Below, one piece after another: positions 1-63,227 of a stretch of 64,000 nt of DNA. How positions within the stretch are numbered: the first letter of the stretch is position 1; every line of letters begins with the position of its first letter. The notes below the pieces were generated by a model. It made no database searches and was not told the origin of the DNA. It saw only the letters and a program-made list of their open reading frames with translations. Source of the DNA: Klebsiella phage vB_KpM_FBKp24. The position numbers and the translations under genes are program-made. Location: sequence record MW394391.1. The stretch is one strand, 5' to 3'.

Positions 1-180
1 GTCACCCAGTTCCCAAATATCGAACATGGGTGTCAGAACAGAGCGTGGCTCATCCGGGCAAACACTGAATGTTGCGTTACGGAAAGCGGCTTCTTTATCT
101 TCAGCGGCAATTAATAACACCGTCGCTTCTTTAGACTCAGGAAGATCGTAAAACTTCTCACTTGCCAGAAAAAGTTTCAT
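1..180 (-). CDS. hypothetical protein, N-terminal part (gene runs off left edge)
   Basis: ATG at 180..178 on minus strand overlapping upstream stop (TAATG); open frame to window edge; MKLFLASEKFYDLPESKEATVLLIAAEDKEAAF... Confidence 0.4.
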   Translation of the reverse strand, partial: MKLFLASEKFYDLPESKEATVLLIAAEDKEAAFRNATFSVCPDEPRSVLTPMFDIWELGD

Positions 181-455
181 TATCGTTCCCCTATTGCGCC
201 TAGTTCAGTTTTAACCCAACTAAAACAATATTTCCCTTCGTACTGTGTATTCATGAGCGCCTTAGGAGTGGTTTTGGTAGGATCAAAAACACAGACGAAG
301 ATACGATTGAAACGTTCTTCTCCCTTGTAGATAAATAACCCCTCGCGATTAAAAACTGCGGATACGAACCCTGGTAAAGTTTTAAGAAATTCTAATGCCT
401 TTTCTTGGTCTTTTTTAAGGTTCCCTGTTGAAAATTCCACATTAATTACTTTCAT
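180..455 (-). CDS. hypothetical protein (91 aa)
   Basis: ORF track; tightly packed in minus-strand operon, 14-nt overlap with next gene. Confidence 0.45.
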   Translation of the reverse strand: MKVINVEFSTGNLKKDQEKALEFLKTLPGFVSAVFNREGLFIYKGEERFNRIFVCVFDPTKTTPKALMNTQYEGKYCFSWVKTELGAIGER

Positions 456-1161
456 TATTATTCCCCTGTGCAGTTAGACCAAAATAATGACATTTACCTT
501 GCGCAGCAACTCGGTATTTCTTTGCGTGCGCTGCACCAAGCGCAGTGTAAAACTTGAGATTGCTGATGTAGTCAATATTCCTTTCCGTAAACTCTTCACG
601 TGTCTGCCCGAACCGAATACCGATCTCTTGGTACAACCCGTTAAAGATATCTTCATCGAGATAAGACATTGCGTAAAGTTGATCGGCGTCCCGAATAATG
701 CCGAATAAATAACGCATACCGGTACCACCGGGATACTGCGGAAAAGGGTCGTCGAAGTTATAATGCGTGAATCCAACTAATAAAGTGATCATCGCTTTAT
801 TAGCCGTAGGAAACTCACACCAGAAACCTAATTGCTCAAGTTGCTGTAAAGCGTGCTCGATATTTTTCCAGTCATCTTTCTCTCCCAAATGACAGAAATC
901 GTGAACTAACCCTGCAATGACGGCTGATTCAAAATCCTTCTCAGAGAGTCCGTAATTTGATGGCTCAAGATTAGAAAGAAGATAACTTGTTAATACACCA
1001 ACGCCAATTAAATGGTGCGTAGAATGATAAGGGCGGTCGACGTTGTGTTTTTCCACCCACTGCATCATTTTACCGTATCGATTAAAGAATTGTCGTCCCC
1101 AGATAGGGTTAAACTCTTCTAACGAATACGCTTCCCAGAAGTTTGAAAATTCACTATTCAT
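442..1161 (-). CDS. HD-domain phosphohydrolase (possible (deoxy)nucleotidase)
   Basis: H..HH(47)...VHDFCH(87)...IIRDADQL pattern typical of HD superfamily metal-dependent phosphohydrolases. Confidence 0.5.
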   Translation of the reverse strand: MNSEFSNFWEAYSLEEFNPIWGRQFFNRYGKMMQWVEKHNVDRPYHSTHHLIGVGVLTSYLLSNLEPSNYGLSEKDFESAVIAGLVHDFCHLGEKDDWKNIEHALQQLEQLGFWCEFPTANKAMITLLVGFTHYNFDDPFPQYPGGTGMRYLFGIIRDADQLYAMSYLDEDIFNGLYQEIGIRFGQTREEFTERNIDYISNLKFYTALGAAHAKKYRVAAQGKCHYFGLTAQGNNNESN

Positions 1162-1867
1162 TGCTAACCTCGTAGTAAGCCATATTGACCGCCTTTAACG
1201 TTTTAACGATCATTTCAGAATCAAATATGGTTTGGTTCCAGTTACGGTGAGTGGCGACGTAGAATTCGTGTTCCTCGGGCGTAAACTCAATATAGAAGCT
1301 GTGGTCAGCATCAACAAGGGCGGAAATTTTATTAGTGGCAGCACAGTAGAGAACTTTAGTACCCGCTAACTCAGAAATACGTTTAAGTTTATCCGGGTTA
1401 ATTAAAGGGTGTGCTAAAAACGACTCTACTGTCCCCTTAAACGGGAGAATATTCATTTCGCCGTTAGAGGAGTCCGTCGGTCCCAGGTATTTCCTCACCG
1501 CAATCTGACAATATTCTTCGACCTGATTACAATATACTTCCATCAACTCTTTCGGAACTTCGAAGAGTTTTTTCTCCAGGCGGTCGATTAATCCATTTGT
1601 CATAATCTCGTCGTTGCGAATCAAGACCATCGGAAACCATTTCTGCAATAAACAGAAGAATCGAGGGTCCACTCCATGATTCGTTAAATAACTAACGAAC
1701 TCGGTGGTTCCAATACCTGCTATCCAACCAAAAGGTTTATTAGTACCGGGAGGGATAAAGTCTTCGTCTGACCAAAAAGCGCGAAGATAATGTTGATCGC
1801 GACTGAGAGCCTGAACAAAGAAAGTAAATTCTGGTTTAAGATTTAAGAAACGTTCGATGAGCTGCAT
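1154..1867 (-). CDS. hypothetical protein (237 aa)
   Basis: ORF track, overlaps neighbours by a few nt (operon). Confidence 0.5.
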   Translation of the reverse strand: MQLIERFLNLKPEFTFFVQALSRDQHYLRAFWSDEDFIPPGTNKPFGWIAGIGTTEFVSYLTNHGVDPRFFCLLQKWFPMVLIRNDEIMTNGLIDRLEKKLFEVPKELMEVYCNQVEEYCQIAVRKYLGPTDSSNGEMNILPFKGTVESFLAHPLINPDKLKRISELAGTKVLYCAATNKISALVDADHSFYIEFTPEEHEFYVATHRNWNQTIFDSEMIVKTLKAVNMAYYEVSNE

Positions 1868-2355
1868 TAGTTATTCTCCAGATGGATACGAATTTTAAAA
1901 TCAACAAACGGTGTAATCTCTTGTCCATTGAGTAAGAGGGGCGTGGTGTAGTCAGTTATTATTCTAAACGCCCGTAACTCAAAACCAATGATTATGGTGA
2001 AATCAACCACCACACCTTCTCTGAATACAGAGAATGTTTCTCTAGGAACATTCCCTAACCCAGTACTACGGAGAATCATCTCGTTAGTACTTACGAATGT
2101 TGTAGTGATAGGTGAGTCGCTTTCCGGGTCTTTCCATAAACGACTCACCGAAAGGACTTCGATACTGGTAATTCTCTTGTTGTCTGGAACAATATTTTTC
2201 AGTTTGTGGATGCGGTCGTCTGAGATCGTTAAATCGAAGAAAGGGACATCAGCATTTTCAAGTTTTGGGTCGTTCAATAACCTTTGAGTTTCCTTTACTT
2301 TAGCACTATCGCTGAGATTACTAGCCATGATTCTTCGAATATCGTCAAGTAACAT
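1867..2355 (-). CDS. hypothetical protein (162 aa)
   Basis: ORF track; ATGA-type overlap with downstream gene; AGGAG RBS upstream. Confidence 0.5.
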   Translation of the reverse strand: MLLDDIRRIMASNLSDSAKVKETQRLLNDPKLENADVPFFDLTISDDRIHKLKNIVPDNKRITSIEVLSVSRLWKDPESDSPITTTFVSTNEMILRSTGLGNVPRETFSVFREGVVVDFTIIIGFELRAFRIITDYTTPLLLNGQEITPFVDFKIRIHLENN

Positions 2356-2382
2356 TTTGTTCTCCTTTAATTTTCCTCTACA

Positions 2383-2406
2383 TCTAAGTGATATAGACTT
2401 GAAAAC
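2383..2406 (-). promoter_or_regulatory. candidate phage early-type promoter motif (coding strand TTTTCAAGTCTATATCACTTAG)
   Basis: one of 5 near-identical intergenic motifs (2383,2946,13764,22031,51208) ~25-110 nt upstream of minus-strand start codons. Confidence 0.4.
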
Positions 2407-2434
2407 GAATCGAAAAAAAAAACAATACAGTAAC

Positions 2435-2464
2435 CTCTCCCTCTGGCCTAGGCCAGAGGGAGAG
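2435..2464 (-). terminator. intrinsic terminator hairpin (14-bp perfect stem) followed by T10 run on minus strand
   Basis: ctctccctctggcc-ta-ggccagagggagag; minus strand then reads TTTTTTTTTT. Confidence 0.7.
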
Positions 2465-2469
2465 TACGG

Positions 2470-2877
2470 TTAAAGTTGTACGCCTAACGCTGCCGCAACG
2501 ACGACCGCAACGAAGATCGAAAGAATACCGGAAAGGATATACCAGACAAACCACAGGCGGGAGTTACCGTTGCGATTCTGGCGCTTGTAAATGTAGACCG
2601 GTGCGATCAACCACCACCAGGCAGACGGAACGAAAGCGCCTTCTTTTTTCAGTGACTCACGGTCGTAGACGAACCACACGGTAAACAACACCAGCGAGAT
2701 CAGCCAGCCGATGGACGGCAGCGCGACCTGAATCGCAGTGAAGATCGGTTGTGAGAAAATGATGAAGAGCATGAAGAACGGCGTCATCAATTGAGGCAGG
2801 GTGCCTTTCTTGAAGAAGATGTGGCCGTTGTTATCGCGGAATTGATTATCGTTCAAATTGATGGTATCGGTAGACAT
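2470..2877 (-). CDS. small integral membrane protein (about 4 TM helices)
   Basis: hydrophobic stretches FFMLFIIFSQPIFTAIQVALPSIGWLISLVLFTVWFV, WWWLIAPVYIY, LWFVWYILSGILSIFVAVVVAAALGV. Confidence 0.55.
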   Translation of the reverse strand: MSTDTINLNDNQFRDNNGHIFFKKGTLPQLMTPFFMLFIIFSQPIFTAIQVALPSIGWLISLVLFTVWFVYDRESLKKEGAFVPSAWWWLIAPVYIYKRQNRNGNSRLWFVWYILSGILSIFVAVVVAAALGVQL

Positions 2878-2945
2878 ATATTGACTCGCTTATGTAAGTG
2901 TGTTTAAAGGGTAAATTTTAAGTTTACTATCTCAATTGCATAATA

Positions 2946-2965
2946 GGGATATAGATGTCAAATTT
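2946..2965 (-). promoter_or_regulatory. candidate early-type promoter motif (coding strand TTTGACATCTATATCCC)
   Basis: second instance of the CTATATC-containing motif, ~70 nt upstream of ATG at 2877. Confidence 0.35.
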
Positions 2966-3506
2966 GTTTGATATCGAGTTCGGGGATAGGCATTTCACGA
3001 AAGATACATTCGTTCTCTACTACTGCCCCTAAACCACCTTCCGCATAAACAGCCTTTAACCCGCGTTTCTGATACCGGCGTTTACCGATGGGGGTTTCTG
3101 ACATGCTGTCATTAGTGAAGAGAAGAAATATTCTTTTCCCATCAAAGTCAGTGTAGAGAGAATAGTCCGTTTCGACCCCTTCCTCTTCACCATCCTCGGC
3201 AAAGCAGAAATCAACAACACCCATTGATATTAACCAGAAGAGGCGCTTGTACTCCCCCAGAAGTTTCGTGTCATCGAGGAGTATTTCCCCGGGTTGGTTG
3301 ATCCTCTCCACGATACTTGCATCGATCAGTTCTGCGTTAGGTTCTTCGGGATCGTACAGATCAGAAAGTATATCCCATGCCCCATCTCTTCCAACGCTGA
3401 CAAAAAGAAACTGATCATTGTCTTCATCGTACATCACCTTGAGACAGTCTTTCTCGATCAGACTTAAAGCGGTACGATACTTTTCTAATAAAGATTCGTT
3501 TTCCAT
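2958..3506 (-). CDS. hypothetical protein (182 aa)
   Basis: ORF track. Confidence 0.5.
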   Translation of the reverse strand: MENESLLEKYRTALSLIEKDCLKVMYDEDNDQFLFVSVGRDGAWDILSDLYDPEEPNAELIDASIVERINQPGEILLDDTKLLGEYKRLFWLISMGVVDFCFAEDGEEEGVETDYSLYTDFDGKRIFLLFTNDSMSETPIGKRRYQKRGLKAVYAEGGLGAVVENECIFREMPIPELDIKQI

Positions 3507-3938
3507 TTAATTCACCTCAATTTGCATAAAGTTTTGTCTTGCGTTTACGTAGATATCAAGTTGGACATCATCCCGAGTACAGTAGTCAAAGAAATCAAAC
3601 TTTGACCCGAAGAAACGATACAAACTGGCCCAACCTCCGTAATTGTCAATATGCTGAGAAAATTGTTCAAAGACGGCAAAAACTCTATCCGGGTCATCAT
3701 TGGATTCTGTATCCTCCGCGCTGTCTATACAGCAAGGATCAATATACATCTGATACGCTTGCTCCGCAAAAGAATGATGAAGAATATCCCCGGCGTGTTT
3801 AGAGTCCGCATTTTCAGACGTACAAACCACCGCCCAGAAAAGTGCCGTCATGACATTTTCTCTGTCCTCTGTACGTTCAATTCTCCGCAGCCCGATTGCC
3901 AGTCTTTCCGGAATTTCAACTATGAAGGTCTTCTCCAA
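3507..3938 (-). CDS. hypothetical protein (143 aa)
   Basis: ORF track. Confidence 0.5.
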   Translation of the reverse strand: MEKTFIVEIPERLAIGLRRIERTEDRENVMTALFWAVVCTSENADSKHAGDILHHSFAEQAYQMYIDPCCIDSAEDTESNDDPDRVFAVFEQFSQHIDNYGGWASLYRFFGSKFDFFDYCTRDDVQLDIYVNARQNFMQIEVN

Positions 3939-5055
3939 TTTCTTTTACCCTCAGTACAAAATAGAAATGACCTTCCGTTGCGAGATTATGCGGATTGCCC
4001 TCTATAGTACAACCGTTCCATATCTGGAGGTCGTAATTACTTTCTTTCTCGATGATTTCCACTGGCTTTCCGTAATCAGAGAAAAAGTTAAACAAATTCT
4101 CTTTTACGTAAATCAGGAGTTTATCGCCGTCAAGGTCAACCCCCGGTTTCTTCAATTTTAGCTTAAGGATAAAGTCATTTTTATCCAATTCAAGAACCGC
4201 GTTGGCAACAAAATCTTGACCCTGCGTTAGATCAATTGTTGATTTTCCTTTCAACTCCTTGACAGTGATATTTTTCAGCACTGTCTCAGAAATGTAATCG
4301 GAAATTTTACGAGAGAAGAAACCGATGCTGTCAATATACTCTTTTTCTAGCTGTGTTTTCATTTCCTCGCTGAATGACAGGAGTTGTTTATAAACATCCG
4401 CTGGCGTTCCTTTTACCGAGAATTTATTTACATACGCCCCGGCAGAACAAAGAACGATTTCATCGATTCTTTTTTCCCTGTCGCGGAAAATGTCCCACGG
4501 AGAATAAAGAATAGTAAAACTCCGGTCCTCGCTGAGTTTTTCACTAAGCCACATCATCCAACCGCGCAAAAGTGTTTTACGGTTATCAGTATGGGAACAA
4601 TAACCGTATTGCGATCTGCTACTCGATGAAAAACCGTACATCTTGGTTTTAGCTTCCGTCAGGCACCTGACCTCATCATCCCAGTCGTCAATTTCAACCG
4701 CCGGTGCAATACGGTAAATTCCCATAAAGTCACGATGAAGAAAAACAGAAACAGAGTTGAGCGAACTACTTACACGCGCGATAACTGTATTTTCTCCCCT
4801 GACCAACATACTTTCCTTTCTTGATAACTCCCCCTGAAGATTTTTAAGGGTCTCGTCACCAGGTAGTAAAGATTGGATGAGATCTTTCTCTACTTCTTTT
4901 TTGGTCTTCAGCCAATATTCATCCGGATTTTCAATTTCAGCGGCGGGCCGTGAGGGGCCCTTTTCCTTTTTACCATGGTTGAAACCTTTATAAACACAGA
5001 AGAGAAGGATAGCGGTAAAAATACAGAACATGGAAATACCAAATGTATCGATCAT
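3916..5055 (-). CDS. membrane-anchored hypothetical protein (379 aa, N-terminal TM helix)
   Basis: N-terminus ISMFCIFTAILLFCVY hydrophobic, remainder soluble. Confidence 0.5.
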   Translation of the reverse strand: MIDTFGISMFCIFTAILLFCVYKGFNHGKKEKGPSRPAAEIENPDEYWLKTKKEVEKDLIQSLLPGDETLKNLQGELSRKESMLVRGENTVIARVSSSLNSVSVFLHRDFMGIYRIAPAVEIDDWDDEVRCLTEAKTKMYGFSSSSRSQYGYCSHTDNRKTLLRGWMMWLSEKLSEDRSFTILYSPWDIFRDREKRIDEIVLCSAGAYVNKFSVKGTPADVYKQLLSFSEEMKTQLEKEYIDSIGFFSRKISDYISETVLKNITVKELKGKSTIDLTQGQDFVANAVLELDKNDFILKLKLKKPGVDLDGDKLLIYVKENLFNFFSDYGKPVEIIEKESNYDLQIWNGCTIEGNPHNLATEGHFYFVLRVKEIGEDLHS

Positions 5056-5255
5056 TTTTTATTTTCCTTTGAGAATTCAACAAATTCTCCGGCAAATTGA
5101 ACCAGTTCAGCGCCATTAGGTTGCGTATCGGTATTCAGCATACCTGCAGCCACCAAGACGTCGTAAAGCGCTTCTGCTAACAGTTTGCGTTGATGGAAAA
5201 CTTCGTTCGGATCGGTATCAGGAAGATAGACTTTAGACATGTTTAATTTCTCCAT
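5052..5255 (-). CDS. hypothetical protein (67 aa)
   Basis: ORF track, 4-nt overlap with upstream gene. Confidence 0.4.
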   Translation of the reverse strand: MEKLNMSKVYLPDTDPNEVFHQRKLLAEALYDVLVAAGMLNTDTQPNGAELVQFAGEFVEFSKENKK

Positions 5256-5260
5256 TAGAG

Positions 5261-5665
5261 TTAGTGTTTGTTATTTACCACTACGGACGCCTTCTCAGGG
5301 TTGGAATCGTGCGCCACGATAATCTCCCCGATATCTTCACGGAAGACGTATTTCAATGTTGTCGATAACGCGTCATTGTGAATGATATCGATTACACCAC
5401 TTTTCTCGTTCTGAGTTTGAATGGTTAAGTCAATACTTTCCCATTCAACGATATCCAACTCACGGTTAGACGACATAAACCAAATGTTATCACCTACGCC
5501 GTCCTTTGTATCCGTGAAAACGGCCAAGTAACGTTCATTAGGGATAAGGTGAGTAAAGCGATCACTGGCAATCCAGAAAGGGATGAGCACATTACCAAAT
5601 CTCAACACGAGATTGGCTTGCTCGCCTTTGTCATTAACGGGAACTTCATCATTCTCTAGAATCAT
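5261..5665 (-). CDS. hypothetical protein (134 aa)
   Basis: ORF track. Confidence 0.5.
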   Translation of the reverse strand: MILENDEVPVNDKGEQANLVLRFGNVLIPFWIASDRFTHLIPNERYLAVFTDTKDGVGDNIWFMSSNRELDIVEWESIDLTIQTQNEKSGVIDIIHNDALSTTLKYVFREDIGEIIVAHDSNPEKASVVVNNKH

Positions 5666-5666
5666 A

Positions 5667-6602
5667 CTACTCCCCTCCGAAAGATTGCTGAATAGCTGTA
5701 CGTATATCGATAATTGGGAGAGGAATAATTGTATCCCAATCCAGCGCCGGGCGGGCAGCGATAAATGCGTTGCGGCGTCTCTGTAGTTCTTCCTTTAACA
5801 GGTCATCATCTTTAAAATAATACCCTTTCTCCAGAAGATCAAAGATTTCTATTTCGCCTACGCCGAATTCATCGACTAATTTCCAGTAAACCTCAAAGCC
5901 ATCATCGGTCAACCAACCCGGTGCTGTTCCGCCATGTTCTTCCCAGCCCAGTTCCCCTAATTGATAAGCCGTCCAATAATAGACAGGGTCAGGGACAATT
6001 TTATTTTTATTATTGAATCGTTCCCTGTAAGTCTCGTAAGAGGAACACCCTGGTTTTTCCATCCATTTCCGTAACGCGATATGAGTCATGTACTTTAACA
6101 TGAAGTAACGGATACGCGCAGAGGCGTCGATGCGGGAAAGTGAATCTGGATTTACAACTTCCTGCGCTACCGGGACGTAGGGATCAGCATCTTCAATTTG
6201 AATAAAGAGATGCGATTTCTCCAAAAACAACACTGTCAATCGACCAAGGTTGGTAAGTTTACCTTCTTTAGTAAGAATCTTTTGCTCCACTGCACGGTCA
6301 ATGAAAAATTCGATACCGCCAGCGAAACCGAAAAAGTCCGCAAAAGGAGAAAGGCCGGATACGGCCTTTATTTGCGCTAACCAGAAAACTTGTGTGTCGT
6401 GCGGCGTACCGCAGCCACAAAATCCAAGGGTATCGTAAAGAAAGAATTGTTCGGCGTCAGAAAAAACAGTCTTTACTCCGTTTAGAAGGATTGAGGTATC
6501 GCCGCGCCAGCTCTCCAATATTTCCATTGTAGGTTCGTCCAATAAAGGTATAATCGGATTTTGTTCTCTCATGCTACCGTATTTTATTTCAATAGTTTCC
6601 AT
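5667..6602 (-). CDS. hypothetical protein (311 aa)
   Basis: ORF track. Confidence 0.5.
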   Translation of the reverse strand: METIEIKYGSMREQNPIIPLLDEPTMEILESWRGDTSILLNGVKTVFSDAEQFFLYDTLGFCGCGTPHDTQVFWLAQIKAVSGLSPFADFFGFAGGIEFFIDRAVEQKILTKEGKLTNLGRLTVLFLEKSHLFIQIEDADPYVPVAQEVVNPDSLSRIDASARIRYFMLKYMTHIALRKWMEKPGCSSYETYRERFNNKNKIVPDPVYYWTAYQLGELGWEEHGGTAPGWLTDDGFEVYWKLVDEFGVGEIEIFDLLEKGYYFKDDDLLKEELQRRRNAFIAARPALDWDTIIPLPIIDIRTAIQQSFGGE

Positions 6603-6612
6603 GTTAGTTTCC

Positions 6613-6960
6613 TCAATGTAAATACTGTTGATTTGGTGGGGTAAAGTAAATGGTTACGGGGGGATCGTTATTAAAGATAACGTCTAGGTCCGCACTCGTG
6701 TCTGTATTTGAAACAACTTTAACCCAAGTAAATGTATAAGTTTCGTGCTTATTTAACGCGTTGAGAATGGAGGCCATTTCTGACTTTCCAATATTATCAA
6801 GGCAATAAAGAGGGTTGTAGATAATGTTAGTTTCCGTTTCTTTCCGTGGGTACATTAAGAGATATACTTTGCCCACTTCCATTCCAGCTGGGCCCTCTTT
6901 TACAGATGAGAAACGATAAACAAGATCTCTTCCGTGTAAACTGAAAATACTCTGATTCAC
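6613..6960 (-). CDS. hypothetical protein (115 aa)
   Basis: ORF track. Confidence 0.5.
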   Translation of the reverse strand: MNQSIFSLHGRDLVYRFSSVKEGPAGMEVGKVYLLMYPRKETETNIIYNPLYCLDNIGKSEMASILNALNKHETYTFTWVKVVSNTDTSADLDVIFNNDPPVTIYFTPPNQQYLH

Positions 6961-7000
6961 GTGCTCACCTTCCGTTTCAGATTAAGCGAATAGAAAATAA

Positions 7001-7028
7001 AAAAGGAGAGGCGAAAGCCTCTCCTTTT
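7001..7028 (-). terminator. intrinsic terminator hairpin aaaaggagaggc-gaaa-gcctctcctttt (A-run/T-run flanked, usable on both strands)
   Basis: perfect 8-bp GC-rich stem flanked by A and T runs, between two minus-strand genes. Confidence 0.65.
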
Positions 7029-7042
7029 ATTCAGCGATAGGG

Positions 7043-7555
7043 TCAATGAACAATCTTAATGAGAACTTCATTAATCGAACACAGAACCGAATCATCTTTA
7101 CGGTTATTGGCGTAAAAATACGCGTATTCATTCCCTTCGTCGTCAGGAAGTACCGTGAAGGAAATGTCAGCCGCAACCTCCAGCCCAGTATAGAACCAGC
7201 CCGTAGAAAGTTTCCCTGGGACCAAATCTACTCTTAAAGCCATAGGTATTAAACTGTCGTAACCACCTATCGCTTTAACTACAGTCACGCAATTTAGTCC
7301 GGGGACCAGGGTCTGGTTATTTCGATGTCGTTCAGAAATATCCCCTAAAGTATGAGAATGAGACTGATGTTGGAATAACGTATAAGTGGCAACGTCACAC
7401 GAGAAAGCCCCTTTATAGAGTTCATCGTTTTTTAACTCAACACCAGGCGGGAGCGGATAGATCTTCATCATAACCACACCTCCTGTATTAGAGAGCGAAC
7501 TGGTCTTCAGTAGCGACCTTATTTCTTCAACGGTCATTTCCTTTATTTCGGGCAT
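7043..7555 (-). CDS. hypothetical protein (170 aa)
   Basis: ORF track. Confidence 0.5.
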   Translation of the reverse strand: MPEIKEMTVEEIRSLLKTSSLSNTGGVVMMKIYPLPPGVELKNDELYKGAFSCDVATYTLFQHQSHSHTLGDISERHRNNQTLVPGLNCVTVVKAIGGYDSLIPMALRVDLVPGKLSTGWFYTGLEVAADISFTVLPDDEGNEYAYFYANNRKDDSVLCSINEVLIKIVH

Positions 7556-7571
7556 TTGTTTCTCTCTGTTT

Positions 7572-8021
7572 TTAATTAGCAGGCGGCGGGTTGTTTTTCA
7601 GCCGATTTGCTTCCATTACCGGTAAATTAGCCTCAGTTGGGACGTAGATAACCTGATTCTTGGTTTGCTGTAAACTGTCTACCCAAAGGTAACGTAGATA
7701 CGCTTCGTTATTCTTCAGGCTGTCACCGATGATCTTGTTGGCCCGTGCTACGCCGCCAGCACGAATGACTTCTGCTTCGGCTAAGCTTTTAGCTGACTCT
7801 TTCTTAGCCTCCGCCTCCTGCACAGCTATTTGACGGTCTTGAGTGGCCTTCATCAGCGCGGCCTTACCTGCCATACCCTGCTGCCATACGTTGTAATACG
7901 GGCAGCCTGCCATGAGTAGTACAATAAAAGCCACAACTCCGATTGCTACCCATTTACCTACTTTCTTCAACAATGCTTTCAGTGTCTCATTGTCGGTGTC
8001 GGTGTTATTGTAATAGCGCAT
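7572..8021 (-). CDS. membrane protein with SPFH/band-7-like C-terminal segment
   Basis: N-terminal TM (WVAIGVVAFIVLLMAG) then coiled-coil and ...AEVIRAGGVARANKIIGDSL..AYLRYLWVDSL... resembling HflK/C, QmcA C-terminal region. Confidence 0.3.
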   Translation of the reverse strand: MRYYNNTDTDNETLKALLKKVGKWVAIGVVAFIVLLMAGCPYYNVWQQGMAGKAALMKATQDRQIAVQEAEAKKESAKSLAEAEVIRAGGVARANKIIGDSLKNNEAYLRYLWVDSLQQTKNQVIYVPTEANLPVMEANRLKNNPPPAN

Positions 8022-8272
8022 TATTTTTCCTGTTTAGTTAAGGTTAGTGGTTCACGCGCCATAACTTCATTGACGGTTACTCTTAGACCGGACTGCGCAA
8101 GGATTGCAACCACCTCTTCGGCGCGTTCCGTGGATACGTCAGGTTCGCCGGCTATTTGATTGAGCGTTGTCTCAATGCAGTATTTATTCAGTAATTCTGA
8201 AATAAGTTTACCGATGGAGCTTTTACCCGTTCGTGCCGGGCCGATTATATTGATCGTAATTTCGTTTTTCAT
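8021..8272 (-). CDS. small P-loop (Walker A) protein, 83 aa
   Basis: IIGPARTGKSSIGK Walker A motif; too short for a complete kinase. Confidence 0.4.
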   Translation of the reverse strand: MKNEITINIIGPARTGKSSIGKLISELLNKYCIETTLNQIAGEPDVSTERAEEVVAILAQSGLRVTVNEVMAREPLTLTKQEK

Positions 8273-8299
8273 TTTGTTTTCCTGTTAGGTTAAACTAAA

Positions 8300-8989
8300 T
8301 CATTTATTGGTTTTGGTGATATACCATTTCCAAAGACCGTAGAACGCGTTCATCAAGAACACCGCCCATTGCGCAACCTGCGCCCATGAACCCGGTTGAT
8401 TAAGCGCCGGGATCACCCACAGATAAATCGTGACGCAGTTGATAATGATCCAGAGAATCCATTGCTCTGGCTGCTGCTTGATCATCATCCACATGGCGAT
8501 GAGCGATGCGACTAAGCAGAATGCGTCTAAGGCAGGAAACGGATCCTGCGTCGTTTTCAGGTATTCGGTCAGGCCATACCAGAAGATAACCCCAACAACC
8601 AGATATGTTATCACGTCACGTAAAGTGATCGTTTTAACCGCTACGTCAGCTTTGGCTGGAGTTTTGCCCAGGTCTTTCGTCCAGTAATAAATACCGATAA
8701 ACTGCATGGGAAGGTAAATAGCGTTCAACGCCGCATTCGCGTAGAGTCCGGTATTGTACGAAACAATACCGTAGGTAATTACACCAACGGTTCCCCAGTA
8801 GTAATTGGAGACACGACCTTTCGCTACCAGAATAACGCAGATCACGTTAGTCAGCGCCGCCGTAAATTCAAGTGGGCTGGCGCTCCAGCTACCAGCGCCC
8901 ACTAAGATCAACGCAATGATCAGCCAAAGGTATTCGACTTTCTTCCAGTGCGCAAAGTCAGTGAACGTTTTCAATACAAGTGTATTCAT
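8300..8989 (-). CDS. pnuC: nicotinamide riboside transporter PnuC
   Basis: 229 aa polytopic membrane protein; C-terminal WILWIIINCVTIYLWV... and overall layout match recalled E. coli PnuC. Confidence 0.8.
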   Translation of the reverse strand: MNTLVLKTFTDFAHWKKVEYLWLIIALILVGAGSWSASPLEFTAALTNVICVILVAKGRVSNYYWGTVGVITYGIVSYNTGLYANAALNAIYLPMQFIGIYYWTKDLGKTPAKADVAVKTITLRDVITYLVVGVIFWYGLTEYLKTTQDPFPALDAFCLVASLIAMWMMIKQQPEQWILWIIINCVTIYLWVIPALNQPGSWAQVAQWAVFLMNAFYGLWKWYITKTNK

Positions 8990-9151
8990 TTTGTGCTCGC
9001 TCGTTGATAGTTGAGAAAAATGGAAATATAACCTGCGCTATGAATATTGAGGTTATCGCCGAACATAGCGCGATAAAGGGGATAACTGTCTCCCAGTATC
9101 CTCTTTATTTTACGTTGCGTACGACGTTGATGGGTCATGTATCTATTCTCC
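8990..9151 (-). promoter_or_regulatory. 160-nt pnuC leader / nadR-pnuC intergenic region with inverted repeat GCGCTATG...CATAGCGC
   Basis: longest non-coding gap in the left arm; 8-bp inverted repeat 9036-9072; AT-rich TTATATTTCC element on coding strand. Confidence 0.25.
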
Positions 9152-10366
9152 TCAATCAGAAGACTTATGGTGACAGCGATCTTCGACACTATCTACCATC
9201 GCCTGAATCAAAGTAGTAATCGATCCGTCAGAAGGCGCGGTTTGGAACTTACCGGGCTCATCTTTCCGTACTGCGTCCCACCCCAGGAACCCTTCGTTAA
9301 ATGCCAGTAATTGATCTACGGCCGCACGGGCTTGATCTAAACGGCCTTTGTACGAGTCGCCAGTAATAAATACCGTACGCCCCCGAGGAGTTTGGTTTTT
9401 AAACTCCAGGAGCATTTGTTGGAATAACCCGTCAGTTTTCTCTCGATCCGGATTTAAACGCAAGCCGTCATCGACCCACGGGACTTCAGGAGACAGTATC
9501 AGAACGAGGTCGTAGTGTTCTTCGGCTGCGATGGCGGAGACGATAGGGTTAGGTTTACCTTCGTACAGACGATGGTAATACTCCGTGACGAAAGCGTTAG
9601 TATCGACGAAACAAAGTCGATTAGAGGTTCGTAACGCTTCCTCCTCCAACTCTTTGTGACGATACGCAATCAACGGGTAGTCAGAACTACGCAGTGTTAA
9701 CTCAGAGCCCGCTAAGACGGTTTCACAGTACGTACGGCCGTACTCTTCTACCCAGCTGGTGTTGTAGAGTTTAGCGAGGTTCTTGACGAGATTTGATTTA
9801 CCCGCGCTCTCGACACCCATGACGACAACCCGCAGACAATAGTCCTTACGGACAATACTGGGGAGATATTCCCAGTTGGCGTAAAGGTTATCACGTACTT
9901 TAGTGGCCGAGATAGGAACACGAGTACGTTCACTGTCAACGATGACGTGCTCAACAAAACCGAGGTGAGTTTTGTATTTCTCATCGTAATCCAGTTCGCT
10001 ACTGAAGATTGCGATAGATTGAGCTTGGCTGTGTTTAGCAGCCAGTTTCCCGGCCTCGCTGAAAATCTTTGCCCCTAATAAAGCGGCGTATTCCTGCCAG
10101 CCGTTAGGATATTCCGGCACCGAAGCTTCGTCGATGAAATCGATCGTAACGTGTTCGGTATCGGCGTAGGTTTGTTGCAACCAGCGCAGACGGTTTTTGA
10201 AGTTCAACACCTGCTGATCGCGGGGAGATTGTTTGTCCAACCAACGTTGGTCGTGAGATAATACCACGAGGACGTGTTTCGATTGGACAGCAGCTTCTGT
10301 AATTAGGTTGATGTGCCCCAAAGTCAGGGGTGCAAACTTACCGATGACGACGCCTAAATCAAACAT
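9152..10366 (-). CDS. nadR: NadR-like bifunctional NMN adenylyltransferase / ribosylnicotinamide kinase (no HTH domain)
   Basis: GKFAPLTLGH (H/T)xGH nucleotidyltransferase motif at residue 9; RLRWLQQTY; WEYLP...VVVMGVESAGKSNLV Walker A of RNK domain; collinear with recalled E. coli NadR residues ~60-410. Confidence 0.85.
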   Translation of the reverse strand: MFDLGVVIGKFAPLTLGHINLITEAAVQSKHVLVVLSHDQRWLDKQSPRDQQVLNFKNRLRWLQQTYADTEHVTIDFIDEASVPEYPNGWQEYAALLGAKIFSEAGKLAAKHSQAQSIAIFSSELDYDEKYKTHLGFVEHVIVDSERTRVPISATKVRDNLYANWEYLPSIVRKDYCLRVVVMGVESAGKSNLVKNLAKLYNTSWVEEYGRTYCETVLAGSELTLRSSDYPLIAYRHKELEEEALRTSNRLCFVDTNAFVTEYYHRLYEGKPNPIVSAIAAEEHYDLVLILSPEVPWVDDGLRLNPDREKTDGLFQQMLLEFKNQTPRGRTVFITGDSYKGRLDQARAAVDQLLAFNEGFLGWDAVRKDEPGKFQTAPSDGSITTLIQAMVDSVEDRCHHKSSD

Positions 10367-10385
10367 TGACTTTCACCTCTTAAAC

Positions 10386-10697: not shown

Positions 10698-10709
10698 TTT
10701 CTTTTCCTC

Positions 10710-11105: not shown

Positions 11106-11113
11106 AATTCTCC

Positions 11114-11347: not shown

Positions 11348-11356
11348 TTTCTCCTC

Positions 11357-12375: not shown

Positions 12376-12378
12376 CGG

Positions 12379-21637: not shown

Positions 21638-21940
21638 CTACTCTATGTTTGTATTTAAAACGTCTTGCTCGGAATAGAACTTATCTTCTACTACGCTGTC
21701 AAACGCCATAGAACGCATCAGGAGCGATTCAACTGGTCTATGGTAATAAACCTTATTATCCCAGGGAGGAAGCAAATTAGAGAGCAATAAGGCGGCTTCC
21801 GTGACCAACGGTAAATTGTCATCGGGTACAAAAGAAAGTGCTTCGTCCAATGCTTCGAGCAAAACATGGCGGGGGGTAAACATTACGTAATCGTCCTTAT
21901 TAAAAAAGAATAAGGTGAGGACCGAAGTCCTCACGCTCAT
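21638..21940 (-). CDS. hypothetical protein (100 aa)
   Basis: ORF track. Confidence 0.5.
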   Translation of the reverse strand: MSVRTSVLTLFFFNKDDYVMFTPRHVLLEALDEALSFVPDDNLPLVTEAALLLSNLLPPWDNKVYYHRPVESLLMRSMAFDSVVEDKFYSEQDVLNTNIE

Positions 21941-22030
21941 TTGTCTTCACTGAATGTCTCGTCATTAACCGGCACTGTGAATAACAGTTAATTAAGAGTT
22001 TCCGAGGGTGTCTTATTTCCTCATCACACT

Positions 22031-51155: not shown

Positions 51156-51207
51156 ATTTTATCTCCTTTAGATTAAGAGGGAAAGTTTTTCTTTCCCTTG
51201 TACACTA

Positions 51208-57100: not shown

Positions 57101-60100
57101 CTATTCGCTATCGTACGCTTTCAGCATTTCCTGCTGAATGTTTTCAATAAGAATGTTGCCCATCCCCAGAAGTAAAGCGGAGTTTACAATACGTGCGTTA
57201 ATTGCACGGTAGGAAAATTGTAAATCAATATCCCACGGTTGACCGCCTGGTAAGACTGGTGTTGTCGTCCGACAGATTCCTTTATAGACACCACTCACTA
57301 CGGACTTCTTCTGGTTACCAACAACTAACTTATCGCCATCGCCCATACCGCGCTGATGGGTAATGTAGATACGAATCGCCATCATATCAATCTCTAATGG
57401 CATCCCGTCAATACGGCTTGGGGTAAAGACCTGACCCGTTAAGGCGGTTTCGGTCCCCAATAACTTAGCATTCTTTGCCCGAATGCTGTCATACTTGTCA
57501 GCGATCTTACGCACCGAATCCGACATATCTTCTTTTTCACCGAAATAGAAGACCTCGATCTTTTCAACCTTACCAACGTGTTTTGCACGTGGTGCCGGGT
57601 TACCTAAACGTTTCAACGTTTCCATTGTCGATTCGTCAAAGTAGTCGAAGGTTGCGGAAACTTCGTCCTCTATAAAAGCCAGCGTGTCTTCATTATCGAC
57701 GTGCTGTCCTTCACTGACCAAGTTACGGATGGCCTGATTGAAGTTCACCATCAGCACACGAGTGTGCGTTACCAAGGTAGTCATCTTTTGCGATAAGCGT
57801 TCCGAAATCAAACTGGCATCTTCGAACGTGTTATTGTTCTCGACCAGCGCAATGTTCGTTGTTACGCCATTCTTAAAAGCGACCTGAGTAGGTTCACGCC
57901 AATCTCGCGCAAAGAATCCAGGGTGGTAAGCTACGACATGGTCTTTATCTACCTTTGCCCCAACCTCAAGATCGCATACAACTTCATGCGGCTCAGTGTG
58001 GCCGGTGACGATACCAAATTTACGCCCTAACTCAATCTGGTCTTCGCCAAGTTCAGGGTCGTCGTACTTGATCACAACATGCCCTTTGGTTTTTTCGGTG
58101 ATTGTCCCCGGACCTTTCGCCACAGAAGAGAAAAGGTCATCGGTACGCTGCGCCATCATTAACTCGTACCCTGTCCGGATATAACCCAAATCGTCTCCGA
58201 CGGAATAGCGTTTATGGCTGCTCTGTATACCGATAAAGTTTACGCGCTTAGGGTCGTCGTATGTTGAAAAAGGCGAGACCAGTGCACTTGTAGATAGTAC
58301 GTTACTGAACCCTTTCTCTTTGCTGAGATCAGTCTCAGTCCGTGCCGTCCCGCGCAGACTTGTCAGGTTAGGGTTAGCCGATAAGTAACAGTTAATCCCA
58401 ACGTCGCCGTTATCCACCGAGGATTCAGAACGTATTCCGATGTCACTAGGATGGAAGGCACGTGTACGACGAGTCATGGATCGTTTTCCGCGACCACCCG
58501 TACCAGAGTAAGTCAAGTTCTCTTTCTCTTTAAGGTTCTGTATCGGGTTGGAATCCTCTACCAAGGAAACAGAAGGGTCTTTCTGAATCGCTGAAAGGAT
58601 TTCAAACGGCGGGAAATCCAACTGCGCCCTTGAACTCAAATTACTCGAGCTTTGTCTTCTCACGGCCTCAGCGAACGTTCTGTAGACCGCACCCGCCATC
58701 CTTTCATAGCCTTTGAAGAGTGAGCCCTGTGAACTCAGGTCACTTGGGTATTCATCGGTTGCAAGATAGAAGGCGGCTTTTTTCAGTAGCGGAATAAACT
58801 CGGTCGGTTCATTCATCGCCTCCAGGTTTTCTTCAGCGATAGGGTCAATGAACAGCGCTTTCAGGTTACTGAACTCGTACAGATATCTTCCTGATAGCTG
58901 CATGTCAGACAGTAAAGCGTTATAGTTGTCTTGGTTGTCGAGTTCCGCGACCGAATAGTTTTTCAGTGCGTTTTTCCACAATTGGAGAGAGCTATAAATC
59001 AAAACATCCGGATGAGTAATACGAGGGATCCGCCAAATCTCATCGGCAAAAACGATTTCAAATGTATTTTGATCCGGTTGAACTCGAGCGCCCTTCGTTC
59101 TACGTTGGGGTTTAATCTCCATCTTATCAACGAACTGAGTGAAACCCTCAAGATACATTAAGACGATGGCCAACGGGAACTCTTGTCCTAATATTGAAAT
59201 TGTGACAAGTTCATTAGGGCGGTTTACAGGGTCTGCACCAAAGAGTTTTGAGATATGACCCAATCTCTCTGGACCGACCTGAAGATAACCCTCTCTGTCC
59301 ATGGTAACGGTAGACCTGCCTCGTTTACCTACCGGGATATTTCCTTGCCCATTCCAATCCGGAAAATTCTTCCCAATGTTCGGATAGTCAAAGAAAAAGT
59401 TCATTCCCGCTGCGTCAAACGAAATGACTTCCTTCGCTATTGCCGAATAGGTACGGGGAACGGGTTGTGAATCCGTGAATGAATTTCCGTAAACGATCTC
59501 GGCCATCAATGGTGGATTAGAAAGCGCCGCAACGTTCATAGCGTCTTTTAACCATTCACCGTAATCGTGGCGACGTTTATCGCTACGGTCTACGAAGAGC
59601 TTTCCGTAGTAAGTTGAGAGCGCGACTGTGGATGGAGAAATTTTGCGGATCGGTTTATCGAAACGCAGTTTACGCATAAAGTATTTGATACCGCCAACTT
59701 TATACTTACCATTTTTATCCACTACCGGAAGCTGGAAACGCACTGTCGAAGGTGCACCTTTTACCGGGGAGATCTTCACGGTGTAATCGTAAAGGTCATT
59801 CAGCGCATCGACCTGACGTTCGACTTTGAAGTCAGTGATGGCGTATCCGGCCTTCTGGAATCCGAGCACCAGATTGATCACATCTTTCTGCATGACTTCT
59901 TCGACATACTTTCGATCGTAATCGATCAACGTACTCTTGAGCATACTTTTATCTTTGACGTGAGCAATATCAACCACTTCTTTCGGTTTAAAGTCCCAGA
60001 CAATTTCCTTCGGAATTTGCCGATACTCATCTAACGATATTTCCTCGTTAAAAGGAGAAGGGATCGTCTTGTAACTTTCCGCCAATCTGAGATGGCGTTT

Positions 60101-61579
60101 ATATTCACCTTGGGTTATTAAGCCTTTGGAAAGAAGCGTCTCAGCCTGGATCCGTATCCCAGAAATTAGCGGGTCTTCTACCTTATCTTCCAGAGGTGGC
60201 TCTATAACCGTCTCAGCGTCAACGTCAGGGGCTGAAACTAAACGCAAGGCCCTAGGGGCTTCAGTTGTCTCGATCTCTTCTGTCAGACTTTTAAATGCGT
60301 CTACGATCTGAGTACGGATTCCTGGTTGCCCCGCGTTAATTTTATCCCGAATTTCTTTTACCGTAACGGTTTTCTTCGGAATACCAGTCGGTGTTTCGTC
60401 TTCCGCGACAACCGTCTCAATTACAACGTCGTCTTCAACCGTCTCGCTAACTTCCAGAATCTCGCTTTCACCCGTGTTCTCATCCGGGATGGTTTCTTCG
60501 ATTGTGGCCTGTTCCTGAACACCCGTCAGTAATTTCAACGCCGTGAGATGCTGGAGCATTAACCGAGAGACCTGGGCGTATGCATCACCCTTCGGGTTTT
60601 CGTTGGATTTTGTCCAACGACTTAGACGCCCGAGGTTAAGTACTGTAAATTTCCCCATCCGTAAAAAGACAAAGTTGATCTTGTCGTAGTGGTCAGAGGG
60701 AATAATATTTAACAGGGATTCTTCCCGCTTCTCGGAAAGCCATTGCCAAAGATCTTGAATGAAAAGTGAGTCGTCATTCTGGAAATAACCCAAACGAATA
60801 CGATTCATCTCTTCCAACGCTAACCCGGAATGCTCTATAAAGCTGGAGTCCGTTTCAAACCCTAACGCTGATTCGTCGAAAGATTCTCTCGCTACATCAC
60901 CTGGGAACTCGGATGAAATCCCTGGGAAATGCAGATCGAAAACGTCGCTGTATGTTTGTACCAGTGATTTATTACGGTGTTGATTCTGATACGCGTTTAA
61001 CAGCGGTACCCCGCCATCTTCTACGGAGATATTCAGCTGCATCTTAGTAGGCATCTCATCAGGCACATTGACGAGAATGAATTGATGGCGGTCAGAATGT
61101 TCTGCGTAGTATTTCGCCTGAGTATAAAGCGTAGAGAGCAAATTCTGGAAACGCCAGAATCTCGCCATCGGCAACGGAAGATAACGCCATTGCATCGGGA
61201 TCAACGAGTAGTTTGCAAGGATCGCAGTATTCCTGTCATCCAGAGCGCGATTGATATCAGTTACTCGACGAAAACCACGGCGCTTTTGTATCCAAGTCCG
61301 TTTAAGGTTGGAAACATTAAACGCACCTTTACGGCGAGGGGAACCAATAAAGCTGGTCATCTCCGTAATGTTGTCCGCATAAGGGCGGGTACGTTCCCGT
61401 TGGAACGCGAAGAATGTTTCATCTGGACCGAGGTCAATCGCGTTAGTCGGGAGGTAATGAAGAATACTATTTTTTGGTAACGCGAAGTTTTCAATGTTAA
61501 AAGCACGGGGGTTCGATAATGTCGTACGATTACGAATTCCGTACGACATGTAAAATTGTTGGTACTGAATGTTGCTCAT
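57101..61579 (-). CDS. multisubunit RNA polymerase beta-like subunit (1492 aa)
   Basis: [23 protein letters not shown] vs bacterial beta [37 protein letters not shown] vs [29 protein letters not shown] vs [37 protein letters not shown] vs [26 protein letters not shown]; protein ends ~40 aa after this motif. Confidence 0.8.
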   Translation of the reverse strand: [1492 protein letters not shown]

Positions 61580-61595: not shown

Positions 61596-63227
61596 TTATG
61601 CGTCGCCAGTGATATTACGTAAAACTAACTGTACGTTGTCAACGTCAGCGCTCTTAGAGAGTGTGCCACGTGAAGATAGATACCACTCTTTGCGACTCTT
61701 TAATCTATTAAATTCCGCCAGGGAATCAGAAGCGTAAATGGCTGTGAAGGTACAACGGTCACCGTCGAAGTCGGCCCCTAAGGGATTGAGGTAACTCACT
61801 CCTATCCCCATCGAGTTAACGTATTCTACTGACTTAGTTTGGTCAGGGAATTCAAAGCAAATATAGTCTTCGCCCAATCTTCGCCAGTCGTGACCAAGTT
61901 CAGGTTTCACGCTAGAAACAATGGTCGGTTTACAGTAAATATTTGCTATGAAGGTTGAACCTTGCCCTGTGACAGGGTAACGAGTTACAACACCCGCCAG
62001 TTTTCCCCATTCCCGATATCCCGATAAGTAATAAAGGGAGGTCATGTTGATAGGGCTCACGAATCGCTTATCGAAACCCGCCGGGAGTTCATTAATGTCG
62101 GAGAAGAATCGGAAACCTTCCTCGCCCCAATAAAGAAGACCGAGATAAAAGCCATCTACCATGATCGGCTTACTGCGGAACGCAGGGGTTTTGTACCGGG
62201 TTATTTGTGCGTCAAGACCGTCACGGGTCGTCCAGCGTTCAATCGCCTCCGGTGAGGGTTGAACATATTCTGCTCGCAGCGTTTTTGGGTTAGTCAGTCG
62301 GATTTCATCTTCGCTATTACCAGAGAAGACTTCACCTAACCAGCCCGACCGTAAGAAGTAACGTGTTTTCGGCAACACCGCTTTGATCGTCTGGTAAAGA
62401 CCTAACTGAACATGGTTGACCCCAGGCGTATTCGTTTCACCGATTCGACCCCCGGTAATTTTCATCGGTGAAATGACGTTCGCCGTACCGTTGAGTATTT
62501 TACGAGAAGCCCATTTGGCTGCAGCGAAACCCTTTTTACCTTTAATCATGTTAAAGATACTTTCAAAGATTTCGTTGAACTGACGCTGGAGCTGTAAACG
62601 ACTGTTGTTGATTACGGGGTCTTCGGAAGGTTCTCTTCCCGTGTCAAGACTACTTGAAATAGAAATGATTGAGCGATAATATTTATTAATTTCATCTTCA
62701 CTGGTTCTACCGGTGGGCTCAACCATTAAATCCCGTAGCCCGGCTGGCATGACAAGTACTTTATCGACGAGGGCGTTTTCTTTGTTTTTGTTAATCAGTT
62801 TAACTCGGAGATTACGAATTTCCGAATCCCCTTCCTCGATCTTCAGTTCAGGGAAGTGACGAACAAAGAAAGCGAAACCCGTATCGCCCTCCATTTCGTT
62901 GCTGGGTTCGAAATCAAAGGTTTCTGTGTTAAAGACCGCGTAACGTCTACCCTCTAAAATATCCAGGTATAAGCGTTTTAAAGAACCTAGGCGCTTATAA
63001 ATGAGGGGGTGGAAAATTCGCGTGTTAAGATTAATGTAACTGAATCGACCGTCTCGTTCGGGAGAACCGAGGGGACCAAAAGTTTCAATAGAAAATAACC
63101 CATCCTTATGGAAGTTCCGCGTGCCCGTTTCAAATATTTCTGTTGTAACAGTCGGGCGCATACTCCGAATCAATTGCGGGGTTAGTTCCATGAGGAAGAT
63201 ATTGAAAGGAATATCATTGGTACGCAT
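61596..63227 (-). CDS. multisubunit RNA polymerase beta-prime N-terminal-like subunit (543 aa) with catalytic DFDGD motif
   Basis: VVTRYPVTGQGSTFIANIY...YLNPLGADFDGDRCTF vs bacterial LLNRAPTLHRLGIQAF...YNADFDGDQMAVH; AGGAG RBS; 16-nt gap to beta-like gene. Confidence 0.8.
   Translation of the reverse strand: MRTNDIPFNIFLMELTPQLIRSMRPTVTTEIFETGTRNFHKDGLFSIETFGPLGSPERDGRFSYINLNTRIFHPLIYKRLGSLKRLYLDILEGRRYAVFNTETFDFEPSNEMEGDTGFAFFVRHFPELKIEEGDSEIRNLRVKLINKNKENALVDKVLVMPAGLRDLMVEPTGRTSEDEINKYYRSIISISSSLDTGREPSEDPVINNSRLQLQRQFNEIFESIFNMIKGKKGFAAAKWASRKILNGTANVISPMKITGGRIGETNTPGVNHVQLGLYQTIKAVLPKTRYFLRSGWLGEVFSGNSEDEIRLTNPKTLRAEYVQPSPEAIERWTTRDGLDAQITRYKTPAFRSKPIMVDGFYLGLLYWGEEGFRFFSDINELPAGFDKRFVSPINMTSLYYLSGYREWGKLAGVVTRYPVTGQGSTFIANIYCKPTIVSSVKPELGHDWRRLGEDYICFEFPDQTKSVEYVNSMGIGVSYLNPLGADFDGDRCTFTAIYASDSLAEFNRLKSRKEWYLSSRGTLSKSADVDNVQLVLRNITGDA

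Follow-up and report, generated by a model that had tools for sequence, protein, structure and literature searches.

The stretch of DNA analyzed here, 64,000 nt of Klebsiella phage vB_KpM_FBKp24 (MW394391.1; the window), contains five copies of an AT-rich motif, each located at a gene boundary and co-oriented with the surrounding minus-strand genes. The original prediction, made from the sequence alone, had proposed that these copies are early promoters of the phiKZ type, read by a virion RNA polymerase (vRNAP). The parent genome of the window is that of a Klebsiella jumbo phage of ~300 kb, ~94% identical to its closest relative, vB_KpM_Centimanus (Centimanus). The first 20 kb of the window align with Centimanus (299,730 bp) at 94.5% identity over 92% of their length, and with a group of ~300-kb Klebsiella jumbo phages that includes KpLz-2_45 at ~80% identity over ~40%. 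KpLz-2_45 belongs to the genus Siatvirus, placed in Chimalliviridae by ICTV, the virus taxonomy committee. Relatives of the phage encode two multisubunit RNA polymerases, chimallin and PhuZ, and the Centimanus annotation lists chimallin (the nuclear shell protein), PhuZ tubulin and seven genes labelled RNA polymerase beta subunit. Judged by these genes, and by orthologues of PHIKZ178 and PHIKZ180 that adjoin an S80 head protease in the window, the phage is phiKZ-like. The evidence set out below makes it very probable that the five sites are early promoters of this Chimalliviridae jumbo phage, read by its vRNAP.

The motif was modeled on the complete Centimanus genome. Alignment of the exact copies of TATATCAC in that genome, used as a seed, showed conservation extending well past the 18-mer first proposed, and iteration gave a position weight matrix (PWM) of 39 columns. 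On the window, this PWM returned exactly five sites, all on the minus strand, with scores of 28.7 to 42.4 bits. Nothing else reached 5 bits on either strand of the 64 kb, and the highest score across 50 Markov-1 random 64-kb sequences was 12.4 bits. Since Centimanus holds orthologues of the five sites, a leave-out PWM was built solely from the 22 sites that Centimanus has beyond the region homologous to the window. It recovered the same five sites (17.8 to 39.9 bits) and nothing else of at least 0 bits. The five sites, with the start of transcription (+1) predicted for each, are as follows.

Site 1: 2378-2416, minus strand; core TATATCAC at 2395-2388; predicted +1 G at 2381; 26-nt leader to the ATG at 2355; PWM 37.9 bits, leave-out PWM 34.1 bits.
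Site 2: 2936-2974, minus strand; variant core TATATCCC at 2953-2946; predicted +1 G at 2939; 62-nt leader to the ATG at 2877; PWM 28.7 bits, leave-out PWM 17.8 bits.
Site 3: 13755-13793, minus strand; core TATATCAC at 13772-13765; predicted +1 G at 13758; 23-nt leader to the ATG at 13735; PWM 42.4 bits, leave-out PWM 39.9 bits.
Site 4: 22022-22060, minus strand; core TATATCAC at 22039-22032; predicted +1 G at 22025; 142-nt leader to the start codon; PWM 32.8 bits, leave-out PWM 24.8 bits.
Site 5: 51200-51238, minus strand; core TATATCAC at 51217-51210; predicted +1 G at 51203; 48-nt leader to the ATG at 51155; PWM 39.3 bits, leave-out PWM 35.6 bits.

All five copies named in the original prediction exist, with coordinates that were off by 1 to 3 nt. 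The distance of 25 to 110 nt that it gave to the start codons also holds, the 3' end of the core lying 32, 68, 29, 91 and 54 nt from the next ATG at sites 1 to 5, respectively; at site 4 the likelier start codon lies 148 nt from the core, at 21883. Its description of the copies as near-identical suits three of them and was overstated for those at 2946 and 51208, which diverge from the 18-mer, because a search with up to three mismatches matches only three sites (2388-2405, 13765-13782 and 22032-22049, with 0, 1 and 2 mismatches), all on the minus strand. By chance 0.20 matches would be expected, and three were not reached in any of 100 shuffles. The AT-rich core that had been noticed is real, and the motif to which it belongs is a tripartite signal of ~38 nt rather than 18 nt. 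The short core by itself is weak evidence, since the bare 9-mer with one mismatch is not enriched in the window (9 found, 10.9 expected). A sixth exact TATATCAC, at 8316-8323 on the minus strand in the 3' part of the pnuC open reading frame (ORF), was set aside as a chance match and not a promoter because it has no flanking motif elements and scores below 5 bits. Whole-genome k-mer over-representation taken out of gene context was likewise set aside as uninformative, because coding-sequence repeats dominated it; analysis by intergenic position and strand was used instead, together with the PWM.

To describe the motif base by base, 58 sites were pooled from the window, Centimanus and KpLz-2_45 and numbered from the conserved G (+1). 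The layout is T-32 C-31 n A-29, N5, TTT, nAnG, nn, TATATCAC (-14 to -7), N5, T-1 G+1 AA, with the following conservation.

-32: T, 52/58
-31: C, 48/58
-30: C or G, 47/58
-29: A, 57/58
-23: T, 45/58
-22: T, 56/58
-21: T, 56/58
-19: A, 53/58
-17: G or A, 58/58
-15: C or A, 58/58
-14 to -10: TATAT, 58/58
-9: C, 46/58
-8: A, 47/58
-7: C, 58/58
-3: A, 45/58
-1: T, 58/58
+1: G, 58/58
+2: A, 41/58
+3: A, 45/58

The bases TATAT, C-7, T-1 and G+1 are invariant, and the core of every site is TATATCAC or a variant of it. Five loosely T-rich bases (-28 to -24) separate A-29 from the TTT element. The motif does not form a palindrome. Promoter-plus-leader cassettes (…aaatgcagtttttttgatgtaTATATTGCtacagTGAAATAGGAAAGG…) of one paralogous sub-family recur around the genomes on the minus strand (Centimanus 172304, 193961 and 216840; KpLz-2_45 238927, 259883, 262814 and 281702), with none in the window; they carry the variant cores TATATTGC or TATATAGC and a conserved leader hairpin of the AGGAAAGG/CCTTTCC type.

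A motif search and check of gene orientation of the kind that the original prediction had called for were carried out with the PWM on the window and on the Centimanus and KpLz-2_45 genomes, and all 58 sites of the three sequences lie on the coding strand. In the Centimanus genome the PWM finds 27 sites; every one lies on the minus (coding) strand, with scores of 28.6 to 47.2 bits and nothing scoring between 5 and 28 bits. Exact TATATCAC copies there are intergenic in 18 of 25 cases, intergenic DNA being 6.5% of the genome, and 23 of the 25 are on the minus strand. In KpLz-2_45, 26 sites reach at least 20 bits, again with every one on the minus strand; each of the five window sites has an orthologue among them. 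The sites lie at gene boundaries, often following hairpins, and the upstream flank is strongly structured in 22 of the 58. In Centimanus, some two dozen blocks of small hypothetical genes have the motif ahead of them. So do the chimallin gene, with an RNA polymerase subunit gene behind it in the order of phiKZ gp54-gp55, and the pair 00140/00139, whose two genes carry the annotation RNA polymerase beta subunit. According to the annotation tables, none of the 27 Centimanus sites immediately precedes a gene annotated as structural, and no motif stands ahead of the vRNAP or protease genes, either in the window or among the Centimanus sites. Three-way alignments revealed intact motifs beside flanks that have diverged or, as at site 4, been replaced outright; at site 1 the motif is identical across the genomes while the downstream coding sequence is divergent. 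Beyond these phages, a scan of IMG/VR for the 17-base pattern TTTNANNNNTATATCACNNNANTGAA found one 302,439-bp contig with seven matches and 38 other stretches with one match each, which is roughly chance level by an uncomputed estimate. Within IMG/VR, the exact TTTNANNNNTATATCACNNNANTGAA variant therefore looks confined to this phage group.

Early promoters of this kind have precedents. According to a review, every jumbo phage encoding these RNA polymerases has a conserved motif that can be found upstream of its presumed early operons; such motifs are AT-rich, ~10 nt long and centered near -10, and profiling of transcripts, wherever it was done, has confirmed them as early promoters (PMC7598289). 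The early consensus sequences reported are TATATTAC for phiKZ, …TTTRARR_BTATATTACDWHDGTG for 201phi2-1, BSHAWWWWWTTTYARRYAKATATTATYWWADTG for OBP and TBYAWWWWWTTTCARRYAKATATTATYWAAGTGWA for N1M2 (PMC7058600, Table 2). The motif described here shares the whole tripartite layout of OBP, N1M2 and 201phi2-1, with every spacing. The boxes of N1M2 (TBYA, five W, TTT, six bases, the 8-nt core, five bases, TG and W-A) are those found here, and its 31 sites per genome are near the present count. OBP and N1M2 differ in the core, KATATTAT in place of TATATCAC, and the OBP, N1M2 and 201phi2-1 motifs are themselves purely bioinformatic predictions.

Starts have been mapped experimentally in other phages. 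The early promoters of AR9 read AAATATATATTAT-(6N)-G+1 and are insensitive to chloramphenicol, and in phiKZ and phiR1-37 transcription starts 6 nt after the consensus (PMC5312081, the sole basis for this rule). This start spacing corresponds to the invariant T-1 G+1 of the present motif. As in AR9, an AT-rich core ends six bases before the initiating G, and there it is read by an injected multisubunit virion RNA polymerase; AR9 differs in lying outside Chimalliviridae, in its uracil-containing DNA, in a core that is longer and purely A/T, and in its other upstream boxes. For phiKZ, 28 to 32 early promoter sites have been reported, which have a T-rich element upstream of the consensus, with starts mapped by primer extension, differential RNA sequencing (dRNA-seq) and ONT-cappable-seq, and an early-type promoter has been reported at the primary start site of PHIKZ054 (chimallin).

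The resemblance of the core to the phiKZ-type early promoter, which the original prediction had pointed out, stands up to direct comparison. The 8-nt core differs by one base; TATATTAC occurs at some sites in the Klebsiella group, and a TATATCAC variant occurs in phiKZ itself, at 4166. A TTT-n-A element six bases upstream of the core and a TG with its G seven bases after the core are common to both, and several phiKZ sites have a TTCAAA-type box at about -32. Shared as well are the position upstream of the chimallin gene and the strand-specific placement before small early gene blocks. When the Klebsiella-phage PWM was scanned over the first 50 kb of phiKZ, it matched seven phiKZ sites in register, all on the phiKZ coding strand. 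The phiKZ TATATTAC sites have the same flanks as those found here, e.g., attcaaacatatttaaacagTATATTACaaaggTGaat. The best match, 63 nt upstream of PHIKZ054, scored 23.1 bits against a null maximum of 12.8. The differences are at the level of the lineage: C is preferred over T at -9 (46/58 sites), and conservation is stronger in the Klebsiella phages at G-17, at C/A-15 and in the T-32 C-31 n A-29 box. Starts are mapped in phiKZ, whereas here they are predicted from sequence. The phiKZ late promoter type (T-3 A T G+1, a minimal TATG that lacks conserved sequence upstream) was considered and does not fit, as the present motif has ~38 nt of upstream conservation and a start that is mostly (T)A-n-T-G, not TATG. 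By its sequence, then, the motif belongs to a known class, being the version of the phiKZ-like early promoter found in this lineage and not a new kind of element.

The window also carries genes for the enzyme that would read such promoters, as the original prediction had noticed. They are the following.

57101..61579, minus strand: gene for a 1,492-amino-acid multisubunit RNA polymerase subunit (phrog_3148, E = 0), orthologue of the phiKZ vRNAP subunit gp178.
61596..63227, minus strand: gene for a 543-amino-acid RNA polymerase subunit (phrog_2986), orthologue of the phiKZ vRNAP subunit gp180.

Against phiKZ-like phages, the larger protein shows ~33% identity across 86% of its length, and it is syntenic with PHIKZ178. 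The smaller one aligns with PHIKZ180 by BLASTP at 35% identity over 491 amino acids (E = 2e-101) and gives a weak match to the Pfam family RNA_pol_Rpb1_1 (25.7 bits, under the curated cut-off). Both genes adjoin the S80 head protease gene, in the gene order of phiKZ gp178-gp180-gp181, and PHIKZ178 and PHIKZ180 are both annotated as "structural head protein". It is because of this orthology, synteny and head-structural annotation of the phiKZ proteins that the two genes are predicted to encode vRNAP subunits. A PDB sequence search with the 1,492-amino-acid subunit gave no match, so no structural assignment was made; the subunit is presumed to be part of the enzyme that reads the motif.

Given the observed motif, with its statistics, its orientation, its conservation and the known early promoters to which it is homologous, we propose the following. 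On infection, a multisubunit vRNAP that includes the gp178 and gp180 orthologues would enter the cell with the DNA and recognize the ~38-nt promoter without host sigma factors. Recognition would involve the T-C-n-A box at about -32 to -29, the TTT-n-A-n-G element at -23 to -17 and the near-invariant TATATCAC at -14 to -7, and transcription would begin at the invariant G six bases past the core (T-1 G+1 A A), at the minus-strand positions listed above. Each promoter would head a unit of small orphan genes, and for several units a hairpin closing the preceding unit would form the upstream boundary. In other parts of the genome, the motif would head the chimallin gene and RNA polymerase subunit genes that are probably non-virion. 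The reading first proposed for these sites thus finds support in the kinship of the phage, the architecture of the motif, the transfer of the PWM to phiKZ, the genomic distribution and the lack of sigma-70 character.

Several points weigh against the assignment. The start sites, the early timing and the identity of the polymerase are all deduced from homology, and no promoter study or transcriptome of the Siatvirus/Centimanus group was found in the literature searched. The PWM and the window are not fully independent, Centimanus being 94% identical; the leave-out test and the results for KpLz-2_45 (80% identical) reduce this concern. The phiKZ sites score 8.6 to 23 bits, with four of the seven no higher than random sequence can reach (null maximum, 12.8 bits). 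Because of these modest scores, the phiKZ and Klebsiella promoter families are best regarded as related and not interchangeable. Site 2 may be a weak promoter, given its variant core TATATCCC and its lowest score.

The sites could instead be middle-class promoters, read by the newly made non-virion RNA polymerase and not by the injected enzyme. The sequence cannot tell which of the two phage polymerases binds, and some phiKZ genes, PHIKZ054 among them, have both early and middle promoters. Nevertheless, phiKZ middle and late promoters are weak or minimal, with a TATG at the start and, near -22 to -24, an element that is AT-rich or reads TACT, unlike the long and highly conserved motif found here, which fits the early class in sequence and spacing. 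Moreover, the motif stands before the chimallin gene and the probably non-virion RNA polymerase subunit genes, and the non-virion enzyme is unable to produce the first transcripts that encode it. For these reasons we consider a middle-class identity improbable. Slightly less probable still is a role as the binding site of a phage or host DNA-binding regulator, or as an RNA-level signal in processing or translation control. Operators and RNA-level signals can also be strand-specific intergenic repeats, and several sites overlap the 3' ends of upstream ORFs, where read-through could transcribe them. Against this stand the lack of a palindrome, the homology in register to promoters with experimentally mapped starts in AR9, phiKZ and phiR1-37, and the location of many sites directly after a hairpin and T run, where upstream transcription would have ended.

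A promoter for the Klebsiella RNA polymerase, dependent on sigma-70 or an alternative sigma factor, is suggested by the AT-richness of the motif, by its TATAT and by a TTGACA hexamer in site 2, but is hardly credible. The spacing is unfit for sigma-70, with the T-C-n-A box 14 nt and the TT-n-A-n-G element 2 nt from TATATC, which itself is without the final T of a -10 element, and phiKZ-like phages transcribe independently of the host RNA polymerase. A sigma-70 promoter would have TTGACA-like -35 and TATAAT-like -10 hexamers (the latter with A2 and T6) 16 to 18 nt apart; a sigma-70 consensus scan found no minus-strand match overlapping any of the five sites, in agreement with the original prediction, which had seen no resemblance to this arrangement. 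Sigma-70-like matches were not enriched in window positions 1 to 20000 (29 found, 32.6 ± 6.0 expected). A sigma-70 identity was rejected on these scans and on the box spacing, leaving early promoters read by the vRNAP as the preferred assignment.

In the window, the first genes downstream of the sites give no Pfam match, and any PHROG families that they match are of unknown function. Site 1 precedes a 162-amino-acid orphan ORF (1867-2355), and its motif is 100% conserved in KpLz-2_45, where flanking and coding sequences are ~80% identical. Site 2 overlaps the final codons of the upstream ORF 2958-3506 and precedes a 135-amino-acid ORF (2470-2877); the core of its orthologue is TATATCCC in Centimanus and TATATCAC in KpLz-2_45. 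Site 3 overlaps the 3' end of ORF 13760-14275 and heads a block of small ORFs extending to nadR and pnuC, and site 5 overlaps the stop of ORF 51227-51958 and precedes a 216-amino-acid orphan ORF (50505-51155); Centimanus and KpLz-2_45 conserve both sites. Site 4 starts where a tail-spike-like ORF (22060-23856) has its stop codon. In Centimanus and KpLz-2_45 the motif and leader of site 4 are kept and its upstream flank is unrelated, because different tail-spike genes sit there; its core is TATATTAC in the KpLz group. The RNA structures and the associated ORF found around sites 1, 4 and 5 are the following.

2435..2464, minus strand: GC-rich hairpin CTCTCCCTCTGGCC-TA-GGCCAGAGGGAGAG, just upstream of site 1, followed by a T10 run at 2422-2413.
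21884..22025, minus strand: structured leader of 142 nt from site 4, near-invariant across seven phages.
21934-21915, minus strand: terminator-like hairpin in the site 4 leader, GTGAGGAC-TTCG-GTCCTCAC then CTTATTCTTTTTT, from the terminator scan.
21638..21883, minus strand: 81-amino-acid orphan ORF predicted to be driven by site 4, of the same protein length as CENTIMANUS_00364.
51179..51197, minus strand: 5'-proximal stem-loop GGGAAAG-AAAAA-CTTTCCC, beginning 6 nt after the predicted +1 of site 5.

The hairpin at 2435-2464 (-31.6 kcal/mol, z = -5.3) ends the one-gene unit begun at site 2. The consensus terminator scanner does not list it because the T run begins 13 nt past the stem. Its orthologue in KpLz-2_45 stands in the same place with a different self-complementary stem sequence.

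The leader of site 4 is kept among seven related phages although the upstream gene has been swapped. It folds into three helices and ends in the terminator-like hairpin, whose stem differs between clades in a compensatory way. As there are only two sequence clades, this support was too thin, and a firm structure claim based on covariation was dropped. An Rfam scan of the whole window matched no family, and for this reason the leader is not taken to be a described RNA. The 81-amino-acid ORF that follows has no Pfam or PHROG match. The mechanical ORF call, 21638-21940, starts at the ATG at 21940, within the leader hairpin; the real start is likely the ATG at 21883, which is preceded by AAGGA. 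A strong terminator-like hairpin (21641-21604) follows the ORF, so that, as read from the sequence, the region would form a self-contained promoter-leader-gene-terminator unit. The leader resembles the prematurely terminated 5' untranslated region RNAs of phiKZ (PMC10914365). It is conceivable, though doubtful, that site 4 serves mainly to make a conserved structured RNA of ~110 to 120 nt (22025 to ~21905, minus strand), which would be produced by the vRNAP in the infection's first minutes, would stop at the terminator-like hairpin before the 81-amino-acid ORF and would act as an early small RNA or a conditional attenuator, and that early mRNA stem-loops protect or regulate their transcripts.

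The first 45 nt of the transcript predicted from site 5 have a minimum free energy of -11.5 kcal/mol (z = -3.3), and at the position of its stem-loop Centimanus and KpLz-2_45 have another stem (AGGTAGAG/CTACCT). Of the 58 early transcripts predicted, about a third open with a stable stem-loop 0 to 13 nt after +1; the mean z-score of the 5' fold is -1.07, with 33% below -1.5. Such 5' stems differ between genomes yet stay complementary, as in the site 5 and chimallin leaders, and short leaders (23 to 32 nt) do not have them.

Other features of these genomes are recorded here as side observations. Tail fibre, tail spike and depolymerase-like genes form a large array in the window (22060-47541), arranged in two divergent blocks, on the minus strand up to 36698 and on the plus strand from 36908. 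The window motif scan found no early-promoter motif within this array. Megablast against relatives covers 16 to 34% of positions 20001-45000, and this patchy similarity suggests modular swapping of receptor-binding genes. Homologues of the NAD salvage genes pnuC and nadR lie at 8300-10366 in the window, downstream of site 3, and Centimanus has genes for nicotinamide phosphoribosyltransferase and ribose-phosphate pyrophosphokinase at 227059-229676. These genes could relate to countering NAD-depleting host defences. Outside the window, Centimanus has a "tRNA-Stop(tta)" annotated among its tRNA genes (121400-121483), which may be a suppressor-type tRNA.

For the understanding of jumbo phages in general, these results leave the current picture unchanged, since, according to existing reviews, any jumbo phage encoding these polymerases can be found to have such a motif. 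What they provide is a predicted early-promoter map of a Klebsiella jumbo phage group, with five sites in the window, ~27 per genome and base-precise predicted starts; one phage of this group has already been part of a therapeutic cocktail. The map marks the orphan genes that are likely expressed first, during host take-over, and is an aid to annotation. The motif architecture is conserved from Pseudomonas to Klebsiella phages, the main difference being one core base, and for that reason the group would be useful for studying how the poorly understood vRNAP recognizes promoters without a sigma factor.

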